A DNA stretch of 63,306 nt, counting the filler, from Reclinomonas americana ATCC 50394 (taxonomy: Eukaryota), in NCBI GenBank assembly GCA_048213135.1. It is 14 parts of 14 records of this genome, joined end to end, with 100 filler letters (N's around TTAATTAATTAA, not from the genome) between each part and the next. Parts side by side here need not be neighbours in the genome. Positions count along the whole stretch, not along the records: positions 1 to 6,930 come from AFZH01021739.1; positions 7,031 to 13,701 come from AFZH01021740.1; positions 13,802 to 20,074 come from AFZH01021741.1; positions 20,175 to 25,846 come from AFZH01021742.1; positions 25,947 to 33,363 come from AFZH01021744.1; 9 more parts are not named here. One strand, written 5' to 3'. Shown here in pieces: positions 948-33,363 of the stretch. Under the pieces are notes generated by a model. It worked only from the letters and a program-made list of their open reading frames with translations. It made no database searches and was not told where the DNA came from. Each line of letters begins with the position of its first letter. Position 1 is the stretch's first letter. The position numbers were made by a program, and so were the translations under genes.

Positions 948-3900
948 TTATTCCTCCTCCTCCTCCTCCTCCTCCTCCTCCTCTTTCTTCACCACCTCCT
1001 CTTTCTTCACCACCTCCATCATCACCTGCTTTTCGTCACCCAGTGCTGCATTCACGCTTGTCAGTGTGATGTTGGCACGACATCCAACAACACAAGGTGC
1101 TCCTACATTGCTGCATTTGGGAGCACTCACCAGCACGTGCAATCTCCGCCTTTGAAAGACAACCGTCTCGAAGCAGAGTGGCCAGCAGGCCAGAGCAATT
1201 GTGAAGCAGATGCATGGCTTGTGTGACAATAGTCAGAAGAGTATTTGGGCCTCCCTTCCGAATGTGCTCGGCACATTCCTACAATCCGAGAAAAGCAAAG
1301 TCAGTCATCACATCATCGGAGCACAACAGCGATCCCAACAATCGTCGCCCACATGCCTCAGAGTGCCCACGCTCGTCAATCACAATCAGTGGTCTCTCGA
1401 CAGCATCCACCAGCGCAGCTCCTCGAAGACCGCTCTTCTAGTGATTCCACATGCACACGATGGCAGCTCGGTCAGGTGCCAGACACGGCACAAGCGGATG
1501 TGAACAAACTGGCACTCACCTCGATGAAGTTGCTAACGCTCTCAAGCACACCCTCAATTGACTTCAGCGTCTTGCTGCGTGCCAATCGGGCACTGCTGGC
1601 AAGACTCTTGCCAAATGCAGCCATGACTGCGGATGATGGGCTGCCCGGTTCATCCGACGGTATTCCGCAGTTGTCACAGGCAAGCTGGAAGAGAACGCGC
1701 TGATGATGAAGGACTGTGAATCGCATCACCACGGGTGCCATGAGACCGAATGCCTTCACCAGAACCCTCTTCTTGTTGCAACCCTGCTCTCGGGTGTGAC
1801 AGATGGGTGGGAGTGAGTGAGGTGTTTATGACAGCAATGTCGGCGATACAAAGCACGCAACAAGCAATCTCGCAAGCATCAATTGCTCGCTGATGCTCAA
1901 CTTCGCAGGATCAATCTTGTGGCGCTGTGAAACATAAGCCACGCAGTATTGAGACGTACCTCATGCAGGACAAAGAACGCAGCGTCGGGCGTACCTTATT
2001 TCTCTTCGCGTCATCGTCCACATTCTCGCTGTCGTCATCATCTTCCTGCTCACCCTCCCTCTCCTCCTCTTTCTTCACCATCTCCATCTCCCTCAGGGCT
2101 GTTCACTCATTTCTCAGCACATATAAGCACTGAAGCTACGAGCACAAGCAGCCAAACCTGTTTTACTGCACCATTCGGCAGCACGTGCAATATCCGCCTG
2201 CGAAAGGCAGCCGTCCCGAAGCAGAGTGGCCAACAGGTCTGGACAGCCGTGGAGAGCCTGCATAGCCTGTCTGACGTGCGGCAGAAGAGCATTATAAGTG
2301 CCTCCCTTCTGCAACTTTGCTGCTGATGCCTGTCATCCAAGCCACAGCAGTACTCGTGAGCCAGCTTTCAATGACGCGCATTAGCAACACACAATTTCAT
2401 ACGCGCCTCAGAGTAGCCACGGTCATCAAGCACAATTAGTGGCTTCTCGACGGCATCCACCAGCTCAGCTCCCCGAAGACCACTCTTCTGATGGTGACAT
2501 CCACGTCGAAGTCGAGTAACGTACCACACACAAAACAATCGGAAGGATACTGAAACAACACACCGACACACTCACCTCTATGAAGTTGCTGATGCTCTTG
2601 AGCACACCCTCAACTGACTTGGGCGTCTCACCACGTGCGTGGCTGGCACTATCGGCAAGACTCTTGCTGAATGCAGACATGACAGCGGCCGAAGGGCAGC
2701 CCCGTCCCTCCGATGGTATTCCGCATTCGTCACAAGCAAGCTGGAAGAAAAGGCGCTGATGATGGAGGACAGTGGATCCCAACACCACGGGTGCCATGAG
2801 ACCGAATGCCTTCACCAGCATCCTCTTCTTGTTGCAACCCTGCTCCGAGGCGCAGTGAGCAGATGTGAGCGTCAGCACTGTCGGTGACATGCAGAGATGA
2901 TAGCAACACGCAACAAGCAGTCTCGCCAGAATCAGTTGCTCGTTGATGCTCAGCTTCCCAGGACCACTCTTGCGGAGCTGTGAAGCGCAAACCATACGGA
3001 ATTAGGACACCCACCTGCTTCGCATCTAACGGAAACGAGCGACGGGCGTACCTTGCCATCGTCCTCGTCCTCCTGCTCTTCCTCCCTCTTCTCCTCTTTC
3101 TTCACCATACTCATCTCCCTCAGGGCTGTTCAATCGCTGTTTAGCACATGCGCACACTGTGCAGCTATGCTAGTCACGCAGCCAAACCTCGTTCACTGCA
3201 CCACTCGACAGCACGTGTGATCTCTGTCTTCGAAAGACAGCCGTCTCGAAGCAGAGTGGACAGCAGGCCAGGGCAGTTGTGGAGAGCTTGCATTGCCTGC
3301 GTGATAAACGGCAGAAGAGGGCTCTGCCGGCTGTGCCGCATCCATGGCAGTTGTGACGACTCCTGACACGCGAATTCCAGAACACGGAGCATGAGAATAT
3401 GGCAGCCCATATGAACAACGCACACTGAGCGCAGGGCAGCCACACCTCAGAAATGCCACGTTCATCAACCACAACCAGGGGTCTCTCAATGGCATTCGCC
3501 AGAGCAGCGCCACGCAGTTCACTCTTCTACATAATTCCACATACATTAGCGTTGATATTGACTCAGTTGCGCGAAATGAATGTAGCTCACCTCGATAAAG
3601 TCGCTCATCATCTGCAGCACTCCCTCAACCGACTTGGGCGTTGTGGTGCGTGCCTTGCTGACGGCATGGCCAAGGCTCTTGCCGAACGAGCTCACGACCG
3701 CCGACGACAGGCAGCCTGCTTTCGATGAAGGAACACCACACTCCTTGCTTGCCAAGTCAAAGAGAATGTGCTGATGATAGCAGATTGTGGATGGCAGCAC
3801 AATTGGTGCCATGACGCCAAACGCCATCACCAGTACCTTCCTCTTGTTGCAGCACTGCTCTCGATGAAATACATCGGTGGTGCGGTGAACACTCAAGTAG

Positions 3901-30400: not shown

Positions 30401-33363
30401 CATGACTACCGAAGAAGGACAAGACTACATGCACACGCAACAAGTAGCCTCGCCAGCATCAGTTGTTCGTCCTTGCTCATTGTGTGAGAATGACTCTCTT
30501 GTCGCTGTGAATGCGCTCCATGAGACGATGCCAGTATGCACTTACCCCATCATTCATGGTCATACCTTGCTCCTGTCACTCTCTCCCATGTCATCGTCCT
30601 CATCTTCCTCCTCCTCCTCCATCTCTTCTTTCTTCAGCACCTTCGTCTCCAGAAGAGCTGCGTGTCCTTCGTCAGCCCTGACTCAACGCACAGCAGGAGA
30701 ACGCATCCGATGCCATCAAACCTTTTTCGCTGCACCACTCGACAGCCCGTACGATCTCCGCCTGTGAGAGACAGCCGTCTCGAATCAGCGACACTTGCAA
30801 GCCAGGACACACTGGTAGCGCCTGCAAGGCGTGGGCTATGAGTGGCAGGAGACGGTCGCTGCAGTTCGGTTTCTTCTCCATCGTCTTCCATGACTCCTGA
30901 AACACATTCGACATCGTGAAAGAAGCGAGTGAGTGGACACAAATCGGGAAATGCAGAGAGCACAAAATGGAAAGTTTCCACACCTCCGAATGGCCACGTT
31001 CATCCACTACAATTAGTGGTCTCTCAATGGCATCTGCCAGGGCAGCGCCGCGCAGTTCACTCGTCTGCAAGAGTTACATATGTATTCATGCTGGTTCACT
31101 TTGCAGTCACGTGTGAAATGGATGGCACAGCACACCCACTCACCTCGATGAAGTCGCTCATGCTCAGGAGCACTCCTTCAACTGATTTGGGCGTCTTGGC
31201 GCGCGCATGCTGGACGGCATGGCCAAGACTCTTGGCGAATAAATCCATGACAGTGGGCGACGGACTGCCAGCTCCCGATGAAGGCATACCACACTCCTTG
31301 CAAGCAAGTTCAACGAGAACTCGCTGATGATGCAAAACAGTGGACGGCTTCAGAACTGGTGCCATGATACCGAATGCCATCACCAGAAGCTTCTTCTTGT
31401 TGCAACGCTGTTCGTGCACACGTACGCACGCACCAGGTGTTATGACAGGCTTGCACATGGCAGAGTGCAACTAATCTGCCTTGCTGGGGTATTGCACACG
31501 CAACAAGCAGTCTGTCCAGCACGATTCGGTCGTCCTTGCTCAAATCCGCATTGAATACATAGCGACTGTACGTGACGCGCTGCAAATACGCACCCCATGA
31601 GACATCAACTATCAACACAACTGCCTCCCAAGCCATACACAGGCGGCGACAACGTCGTACCTTGCTCGTCTTTGTTTCTTCACGATCATCACTTCCTGCA
31701 TCCTCCTGTGAACGCAACGCATCAGCGCGTGGCCGAGTCCAAGAAGACACACTCAGTCTTCGTCATTCATGAACTGTTGATGCTCACCTTGGTGTCATCT
31801 TCCTCATGCTTGATGCCATCGTCGTCTTTCTTCACCATCATTTTCACATCGCCAGATTCTGCGTAATGCTGGTCAACACCGATGCAAGCAACAACAACAG
31901 CCGCATGAGATCGCAGACCTTTTGATTGGCACCAAGCGACGGCGCGTACAATCTCGGCCTCAGAGAGGTGGTTGCGTCGAAGCAGAGAAGTCAGAACACC
32001 ATCGCACTCGCGCATCGCATCGATGGCCTCCGTGACAAACGGCTGAAGATGGTCCTTCCTGGTTTTATAGGAAGGGCGCAAGATCTCCCACGATTCCTGT
32101 CACAAACAGCCAAGTGCGCGAAGATCAGTCGACATGATCACATCAATCACAGAGGATCACGAAAAACAAACGCACCTCCGAATACCCGCGCACATCAACC
32201 ATTATCAGTGGTCTCACAACAGCATCCGCCAGAGCCGCGCCGCTGAGCTGGCTCATCTGCATTGTGCAATCATCTGCTTGTTGATTACATACCACAATCG
32301 CCGCAGGCACACATGCTTGCTCACCTCGATGTAGTTGCTCACGCTTTGCAGCACGCCCTCAACTGATTTGGGCATTCTGCCACGTGAACTATTGACAGCC
32401 CTGCCAAGACTCTTGCAAAACGCAATCTTGACTGCAGACGACGAGCAACCCCGCTCCGACGATGGAATTCTGCAGTCGTCGCAGGCAACGTCGAAGATAG
32501 CACTCTGATGGTGGACGACGGTGGACGGCTGGACAATTGATGCCATCAGGCCAAACGCCTTCACCAGGATCCTCTTCCGATTGCATCGCTGCGAGTGATG
32601 CAAGAAGAATGGTGAGTGCGACGAGGAGAAGGAGGAGGCTGAAGGGGTTGCAACGATGTCAGAGAGAGCATGCACACGCAACAAGCAGCTTGTTCAGCAA
32701 CAGCTTCTCGTCTGTGCTCAACTCCACTGGGGTTTTCGCAGCTCGACTCTTGCCACGCTGTGAATTCACACCATGCGTCATTGACACAAGAACCCAAATG
32801 CACATCGATGAAGAAACACAACAATGTTAGCGACAGAGAATTCACACCTTCTTCTTCTTTGGCGGTGCAAGCTCGTCGTCGCTGGGTGCATCCACCTGCA
32901 AAGAATGCGGTAAAACATCAGGTGTCAACTGCGATGTACGAGCGAGATGCAAGCGATGCGCATGCCTCATTGGAGTTCACCTCCAGAGAACGCTTGCGGG
33001 ATGATGTCTCATCTGAGTCACGTGCAGGCAAGTCCTCACTTTGATCCACTAGAGACGAATCTACTCGCTGTCTCCTTGCATGTTGCTGTGCAATCATGCC
33101 AAGAGAGAGAGAGAGAGAGTTCAGTGAGAGACATGCTCATCTTGGGATGACACACAATCAGTATACCTCGACGATGCCTTCCATCGCTGTGTGTTCCATG
33201 TGCTCCTGGTGGGCAGCTGCGTGTATGCATCGCCCAGACGAGACATCACTTGACGCGAGAACACCAATGACTGCAGAGAGAGAGAGAGAGAGACGCACCC
33301 TGCTCAGTGCGATTCTCCGAGTCACTTTGGGCAGCGGCAATGGCGGCTGTGCTCTCGTCAGCG
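27455..33363 (-). CDS. Array gene 5: paralog with 5 modules (A-B-C-D-E), 5' end truncated by gap
   Basis: Exon 2 homolog (ADESTAAIAAAQSDSENRTEQG) abuts the gap at 33363. Core exons fall within ORFs 32253-32684, 31096-31470, 29688-30362, 28961-29554 and 27962-28258. First in-frame stop is TAG at 27455, inside the poly-Glu tract. Confidence 0.7.

Follow-up and report, generated by a model that had tools for sequence, protein, structure and literature searches.

A stretch of 63,306 bases from Reclinomonas americana (the whole of it is called the window here) carries at one end a protein unit that recurs 22 times, and it raises the question of how many genes encode this unit, whether it belongs to any described domain, and what a protein built from it would do. 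The 22 units, termed modules, are distributed 5+4+4+4+5 over five minus-strand gene copies in the first five of the contigs, or pieces, that make up the window. As read from the sequence, these are five separate, recently duplicated, head-to-tail, intron-rich genes. The module matches no described family, although the architecture itself, that of a repeated-module nuclear protein encoded by an expanding gene cluster, is familiar. A nuclear role in nucleic-acid or chromatin binding would be the most likely function, a view held with modest confidence.

The modules were located by tblastn against the whole window, the queries being the peptides encoded by the exons of one module (1036-2102). These peptides match 22 loci each for the module exons e2, e3 and e4, 15 loci for e1 and 5 loci for the linker exon that follows e4. 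Every module match falls within 1039-32591, on the minus strand of pieces 1-5, and the E-values for e2 range from 1e-30 to 1e-76; pieces 6-14 hold no match to the exon peptides. Exon boundaries were set by anchoring on splice sites, which consist of AG acceptors and GT or GC donors. Exon e1 is 21-25 codons long in 21 of the 22 modules and is flanked by (c/g)ag and a GTTGCG-type donor; the only copy not recovered is that of module B4, lost at the contig end at 25846. Exon e2 has exactly 88 codons in all 22 modules, with no stops or indels and a mean column identity of 73%, and its acceptor is a CAG directly upstream (TAG once). Exon e3 is equally constant, with exactly 27 codons and no stops or indels in 22 of 22, and its donors comprise 14 GT and 8 GC. 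Exon e4, present in every module, spans 49-56 codons and in all 17 internal modules extends 10 nt to a conserved phase-1 AG/GT donor. Not one of the 66 exons of types e2, e3 and e4 contains a stop codon or frameshift, and their phase is fixed.

At 17 of 17 internal junctions, e4 is followed by a Lys/Glu-rich linker exon, and the three A-to-B junctions have two such exons. It starts with A-L-[RL]-E-x-x-[MV]-[VL]-K-K-E-E, continues as Asp/Glu/Lys-rich low-complexity sequence and ends Lys-rich. The invariant columns of e2 are N3, L8, V9, A11, G13, M15, A16, H27, A35, P42, G47, S50, V53, R69, S75 and L80, and those of e4 are L36 and A50 only. Zinc-binding repeats are marked by an invariant set of Cys/His ligands in each repeat; no Cys of e2 is invariant, and the 5-9 cysteines found per module occupy positions that vary. 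The GC donors after e3 have a distribution of their own, being found in E1, D1, D2, E3, D3, E4, E5 and D5 (e.g., at 1355-1356 and 2405-2406). Of the nine D/E-type modules, eight have a GC-AG intron at this position, the exception being D4 with GT at the homologous site; the remaining 13 modules have none there.

The five genes are delimited by their ends. In each of the five, the last module is followed by an 85-nt intron and a conserved, acidic tail exon with its own stop codon (consensus V-x-x-D-E-K-P-V-K-M-E-V-V-K-K-E-E-poly-Glu). A single giant gene was considered and rejected on account of these five stop codons, each with the conserved tail. Below the stops in pieces 2-5 lie spacers of ~1.5-1.6 kb that are 83-88% identical among pieces and contain an ATG-started open reading frame (ORF) of ~90 codons (MSASSPCDDEK...) with 76-81% protein identity. 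In the alignment, each of the ~8 indels counted within this ORF has a length divisible by three, whereas the DNA on either side shows indels of other sizes. The ORF ends in ...AAG AAA G/GTGTGT..., a phase-1 donor within a GT repeat, and the tops of pieces 1, 2 and 3 show a phase-1 acceptor, ...ttgttgcag/AACCAGC, preceded in pieces 2 and 3 by a (TTC)n tract. We infer that the spacer ORF is a putative exon 1, spliced across the contig gap to the gene body in the piece before it, and that the microsatellites that interrupted the assembly would be part of intron 1. With the ORF read as exon 1, head-to-tail repetition would be contained within single contigs, namely each of pieces 2-5. No exon 1 of gene 5 is matched by tblastn within the window; gene 4 has its module A and its N-terminal exons in a contig gap. 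At the other edge of the array, piece 1 matches the spacer of piece 2 over 534-1037 only (~500 bases) and the sequence beyond is unique, which makes gene 1 the downstream end.

The order of the genes depends on how the window was put together. It is not one contiguous sequence; it consists of 14 contigs of 1.2-7.7 kb each, joined artificially by N44-TTAATTAATTAA-N44 spacers (26 runs of 44 N, in pairs flanking TTAATTAATTAA), with an overall GC content of ~0.53. Microsatellites of the (GT)n, (GA)n or (TTC)n type lie at or beside many piece ends, so the assembly evidently broke at simple repeats. A BEACH-family gene is split across pieces 10, 11 and 12, with its domains consecutive and on one strand. 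Its Beach domain is represented by the last 59 of 276 positions only (E 2.4e-16), the first three quarters falling in the gap at 49799-49898. Because these three pieces carry consecutive domains of one gene, they would be scaffold neighbours in true order and orientation. By the same token, the pieces are best read as neighbouring scaffold contigs whose order and orientation are true, with sequence missing at the joins.

The most complete copy is gene 1. With the putative exon 1 included, its model comprises 31 exons and a 4,053-nt coding sequence whose 1,350 codons extend without interruption from the ATG to the TAA. All 30 introns end in AG; 28 begin with GT and 2 with GC. Apart from intron 1, which crosses the gap, and intron 2, of just 29 nt, they measure 59-106 nt. 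The predicted protein begins with a ~210-amino-acid N-terminal region with Ser/Thr, Asp/Glu and Lys/Arg patches, followed by the modules, the linkers and the poly-Glu tail. Basic runs are found at residues 47 (KKKK), 99 (KKKK), 163 (RRRR) and 207 (KKKKR, within APPKKKK/RGK). A first-pass annotation of the window had described a five-gene tandem array of 22 modules, each spliced from five exons. The array is recovered here through the 22 copies of e2, e3 and e4, the five stops and the head-to-tail spacers, and the exon structure through splice-site anchoring, with the amendment that A-to-B junctions have two linker exons. The motifs then quoted are present, including EDKKKKH and APPKKKK/RGK; the start coordinate given, 948, proves to be the TAA stop codon of gene 1, and the five contigs named correspond to pieces 1-5. 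Full-length products with basic patches had been put at roughly 1000-1300 amino acids, close to the ~1,350 of the gene 1 model. That the array is real coding sequence, as had been proposed, is borne out by the intact exons, the open 31-exon model and the selection acting on it.

Selection was measured on e2+e3 (115 codons), both between same-position copies across genes and between module types within genes 1 and 5. Same-position modules have dN/dS (the ratio of nonsynonymous to synonymous divergence) of 0.29-0.48, the upper value being that of type C, at dS of 0.23-0.34. Between module types, dN is 0.13-0.31 and dS 0.37-1.35. As dN is well below dS, the coding sequence of the module is under purifying, though not strong, selection. 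Exon identity between same-position modules is 0.87-0.88 and intron-2 identity 0.79-0.90; introns are about as similar as exons between gene copies, the duplications being recent. Exon identity falls to 0.67-0.84 and intron identity to 0.41-0.68 when module types are compared. The earlier statement that introns diverge while exons are kept thus applies between module types and fails between gene copies.

A maximum-likelihood tree of e2+e3+e4 from all 22 modules, with no rows dropped and a midpoint root used for drawing only, resolves five positional clades: A with 3 modules, B with 5 (including AB3), C with 5, D with 5 and E with 4, each with 98-100% support. D and E are sister clades (support 100/98). 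The clustering of modules by position implies that the five-module architecture is older than the gene duplications. Two modules are hybrids. D2 combines a D-type start with an E-type end of e4 and bears the terminal tail; in AB3, e1 is of A type and e2 is A-like at its start and B-like onward. Such hybrids are the outcome expected from unequal crossing-over between neighbouring modules, and genes 2 and 3, in which they occur, have four modules. Internal duplication first gave a five-module gene, with D and E as the youngest pair; the whole unit of 6-7 kb was then duplicated in tandem, and module number has since changed through unequal crossing-over between modules. The hybrids D2 and AB3 agree in this with the first-pass description of an expanding family.

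Variation within the positional groups is concentrated in two patches of e2. It peaks in columns 18-23 (3.2 extra residue types per column) and 62-72 (4.7), compared with 2.25 in columns 50-61 and 1.1-1.5 over most of the remaining segments. On this distribution, the two patches would suit specificity-determining surfaces on a conserved scaffold.

Searches for relatives of the module covered several libraries. With hmmscan against a 2025 copy of Pfam-A, 22 e2, 22 e4 and 12 other exon or read-through translations match no family at its gathering cut-off; the top matches are HEAT_EZ (E 0.031) and HTH_24 (E 0.052), each in few members. Sequence profiles of the PDB give a best E of 0.26 for e2 (sarcospan) and 0.4 for e4, and a homologue search with e2 among longer proteins finds no match in 234 candidates. 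A hidden Markov model of the 22 e2 exons, run against 1.84 billion protein representatives, has three matches with E from 2.6e-6 to 3.5e-4. These were rejected, since the proteins are internally repetitive and each score sums chance matches over 3-6 short stretches. DNA pattern scans find no copy of e2 in 293 candidates or of e3 in 200 candidates from metagenome contigs, and none in 20 candidates from viral contigs. Among 80 candidates from prokaryote genomes, a single one, at 3001-3066 of a contig of a Marinovum metagenome-assembled genome, has 22 residues with 50% identity to e2 residues 14-35; the pattern is degenerate and the match was judged to be chance. Comparison of e2 with e4 by hhalign (probability 0.9%) gives no sign of internal duplication in the module. 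A full-text literature search on the motif words of the module has no match, and this search is the sole basis for regarding the family as unpublished. Judged by these results, the module is without detectable relatives and new as a domain, in the sense that none are detectable with single exons in the libraries searched. The initial failure to place it in a known family therefore persists across Pfam, the PDB and the 1.84 billion representatives, with no credible match.

Structural models were built with AlphaFold2 from contiguous read-throughs of exon pieces that include the translated intron, with the exons of other modules as alignment rows. Model 1, e1-intron-e2 of D1 (134 amino acids, 39 rows), has a mean pLDDT, the confidence score of AlphaFold2, of 68.7, with e2 core blocks at 78-89 and seven helices. 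Model 2, e3-intron-e4 of B1 (111 amino acids, 40 rows), has a mean pLDDT of 56.2 and e4 blocks at 75-80; it contains a helix and a strand in e3 and e4 helices at 68-85, 87-95 and 101-110. The module, ~190 amino acids from e1 to e4, is thus predicted to be mainly alpha-helical. Fold searches with these models, which are exon pieces of modest confidence, yield nothing that rises above background, and Foldseek finds no match at E <= 0.001 in the PDB or BFVD. A complex prediction for e2 against e3-intron-e4 of B1, made without alignments and with a poorly folded partner, gives a score of 0.02 and a mark of 0.34.

The favoured account combines two propositions, a recent tandem cluster of multi-module genes and modules that bind nucleic acid or chromatin in the nucleus, and taken jointly they are given somewhat less than an even chance. 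The module cores are basic, with a median isoelectric point (pI) of 9.1 and a median net charge of +6.5 (e2 alone averages +5.4), and the linkers and tail are acidic. This charge pattern and the basic runs resembling nuclear localization signals (NLSs) are the two features that suggest a nuclear location. HTH_24 (PF13412) has sub-threshold matches in 4 of 22 e4 exons over LLATLLRDGCLSxAEIARA, which aligns to profile positions 8-26 of 48, and model 2 predicts two short turn-joined helices at that stretch (pLDDT 75-80). The recognition helix and wing, however, lie outside the aligned part, and no helix-turn-helix is prominent in the fold searches. The protein would enter the nucleus by means of its KKKK, RRRR and PPKKKKR patches, and each basic module would dock onto nucleic acid or chromatin. 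In e4, the final pair of helices would resemble the start of a helix-turn-helix, to which the conserved start of the linker exon could add a third helix. The two hypervariable e2 patches would determine the specificity of individual modules, with the acidic linkers serving as flexible spacers. A stronger version, in which the module is a new nucleic-acid-recognition fold present 4-5 times per protein, with targets set by e2 columns 18-23 and 62-72 and diversified by gene duplication and unequal crossing-over, is improbable.

Multi-HMG-box (UBF-type), multi-BEN and tandem C2H2 zinc-finger cluster genes encode nuclear proteins in which DNA-binding modules are repeated and acidic regions occur. 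The present genes resemble them in having several copies of one basic module per protein, NLS-like patches and acidic or charged linkers and tail, and also in being tandemly duplicated, with module number altered by unequal recombination. They differ in the size of the module, ~190 amino acids being far above that of an HMG box, BEN domain or zinc finger, and in the lack of an invariant Cys/His set. The Pfam models of the HMG-box, BEN and zinc-finger families do not match the module.

Several points weigh against a nuclear, nucleic-acid-binding protein. The gene 1 protein as a whole is slightly acidic (pI 6.3), and basic domains with acidic linkers are also found in proteins that bind no nucleic acid. 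The likeness to HTH_24 has a best E of 0.052 and a bit score, where shown, of 12.7 against a cut-off of 21.9, and it extends to just those 4 of 22 members. The structural models are of modest confidence (mean pLDDT 68.7 and 56.2) and represent exon pieces with translated intron. Furthermore, the N-terminal model needs a (CT)n-rich intron of 29 nt (6796-6824, minus strand), and gene 2 has a 17-nt deletion over the acceptor of this intron (about 13430-13460). Because the intron is suspect and its acceptor is deleted in gene 2, exons 2-4, the protein start and some of the NLS-like patches are tentative; the N-terminal model of gene 1 may be wrong, or may differ between gene copies.

The main competitor accepts the genes as real and takes the modules to be protein-protein interaction or scaffold units of a cytoplasmic, cytoskeletal or secreted protein, in which the basic patches are incidental. 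Helical models without a DNA-binding fold match fit this account, as does the whole-protein pI, and the 5-9 cysteines per module might belong to such a protein, although they are not invariant. The dN/dS of 0.29-0.48 together with the hypervariable patches would also fit a fast-evolving interaction surface. On the other hand, the putative exon 1 has no signal peptide or membrane segment evident by eye, and the four basic runs, PPKKKKR among them, are typical of nuclear import signals. An interaction or scaffold role is accordingly rated as unlikely, if still a serious contender.

Two further explanations concern the origin of the module and the reality of the array. The module could be a diverged, domesticated piece of a mobile element, e.g., a hAT-type transposase helical domain (FAM200/GTF2IRD2-like, DUF4371), multiplied in a host gene. 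By language-model features, the nearest cluster to e2 is indeed the FAM200/GTF2IRD2-like helical domain of hAT-derived proteins (PF27046), which is also helical, but the score of 0.80 (79 of 256 features shared) is no better than that of shuffled sequences, one third of which reach the same atlas score. Neither PF27046 nor PF14291 is listed among the Pfam matches at E up to 10 for any of the 22 e2 exons. The window shows neither a transposase catalytic domain nor terminal repeats or dispersed copies, and the units are 6-7 kb tandem duplicates with ~30 introns each; this origin is rated as quite improbable. It is very improbable that the array is not a functional tandem family at all, its members being alleles, strain variants, mis-scaffolded copies or decaying genes. 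In favour of this, the contig order rests on the scaffold, the gaps all coincide with microsatellites, the 5' part of gene 4 and exon 1 of gene 5 are missing, and the dN/dS of type C reaches 0.48. Pieces 2-5, however, each combine the 3' end of one copy with a spacer and an exon-1-like ORF, and the copies differ by ~12% in exons and also in module number. The 66 uninterrupted exons and the meaningful scaffold order of pieces 10-12 argue in the same direction. The coordinates of the array and of the other features are collected in the table.

Table. Features of the window, with positions counted along its 63,306 bases.
Feature	Position	Strand	Description
Array downstream edge	1..533	.	without counterpart in other spacers; no exon-1-like ORF
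Gene 1 body	948..6930; TAA 948-950	-	N-terminal exons 2-5, modules A1-E1, tail exon
Module A1	5453..6294; e1 6220-6294, e2 5862-6125, e3 5711-5791, e4 5453-5630	-	
Module B1	4248..5112; e1 5038-5112, e2 4668-4931, e3 4510-4590, e4 4248-4422	-	
Module C1	3188..4007; e1 3945-4007, e2 3591-3854, e3 3446-3526, e4 3188-3362	-	
Module D1	2158..2977; e1 2915-2977, e2 2576-2839, e3 2407-2487, e4 2158-2329	-	linker exon 1995-2098
Variable e2 patches in D1	2771-2788; 2624-2656	-	columns 18-23; columns 62-72
Module E1	1131..1924; e1 1862-1924, e2 1520-1783, e3 1357-1437, e4 1131-1278	-	tail exon 948-1045
Putative exon 1, gene 1	7117..7387	-	starts ATG; in the next contig; conserved in 4 spacers
Intergenic spacer, gene 2 stop to gene 1 exon 1	7388..8653	-	83-88% identity to equivalents in pieces 3, 4 and 5
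Gene 2 body	8654..13701; TAG 8654-8656	-	modules A2, B2, C2, D2 (D/E hybrid with terminal tail)
Gene 2 modules	8843..12909	-	e2 of A2 12477-12740, B2 11298-11561, C2 10238-10501, D2 9222-9485
Putative exon 1, gene 2	14094..14288 (tblastn-matched part)	-	81% identity over 68 amino acids
Gene 3 body	15227..20074; TAG 15227-15229	-	modules AB3 (A/B hybrid), C3, D3, E3
Gene 3 modules	15410..19343	-	e2 of AB3 18935-19198, C3 17861-18124, D3 16847-17110, E3 15804-16067
Putative exon 1, gene 3	20264..20470 (tblastn-matched part)	-	76% identity over 72 amino acids
Gene 4 body	21761..25846; TAG 21761-21763	-	modules B4, C4, D4, E4
Gene 4 modules	21950..25759	-	e2 of B4 25496-25759, C4 24414-24677, D4 23400-23663, E4 22350-22613
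Putative exon 1, gene 4	25970..26173, cut at contig end	-	80% identity over 69 amino acids
Gene 5 body	27455..33363; TAG 27455-27457	-	N-terminal exons 2-5, modules A5-E5
Gene 5 modules	27623..32757	-	e2 of A5 32325-32588, B5 31144-31407, C5 30087-30350, D5 29072-29335, E5 28019-28282
Artificial joins	6931-7030, 13702-13801, 20075-20174, 25847-25946, 33364-33463, and eight others		N44-TTAATTAATTAA-N44
WD40 coding sequence, piece 6	34764-35155	-	reaches contig end
WD40 coding sequence, piece 7	35256-35978	-	reaches contig end
310-codon open frame, piece 8	36587-37519	+	
BEACH-family gene, pieces 10-12	39441-57624	+	Pfam domains in order: DUF4704 (weak, E 0.009), DUF4800 (E 3e-7), PH_BEACH (E 1.8e-12), Beach, WD40
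WD40_Gbeta fragment, piece 14	62837-63100	+	followed by (GAGA)n tract

Other coding sequence is found outside the array. WD40 coding sequence with two repeats (E 2.4e-24) is present in pieces 6 and 7, and the two sequences are probably one gene. The 310-codon open frame of piece 8 matches no Pfam family and has a single relative, metagenomic, with 42% identity over 83% of the query. Piece 14 carries a G-protein beta-like WD40 fragment (E 2e-12). For the BEACH-family gene, one ORF has no match among proteins of 859-2450 amino acids, a range from which BEACH proteins are probably missing, and a BEACH/WD40 piece has its protein-atlas matches in generic WD40 clusters only. A search of the full 63,306-base window with Rfam gives no match.

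Among poorly sampled eukaryotes, orphan families are nothing unusual; the finding is solid as annotation and modest as biology. Should the module truly lack relatives, it would be a candidate for a new protein fold and would represent a new family of repeat domains in an actively evolving tandem cluster. A domain of ~190 residues that is intact in 22 copies under purifying selection is also a target for structure determination. The module family bears on how new multi-domain nuclear proteins arise and, should the modules prove to be a nucleic-acid-recognition fold, they would be a protist counterpart of modular, fast-evolving recognition systems such as KRAB zinc-finger clusters.

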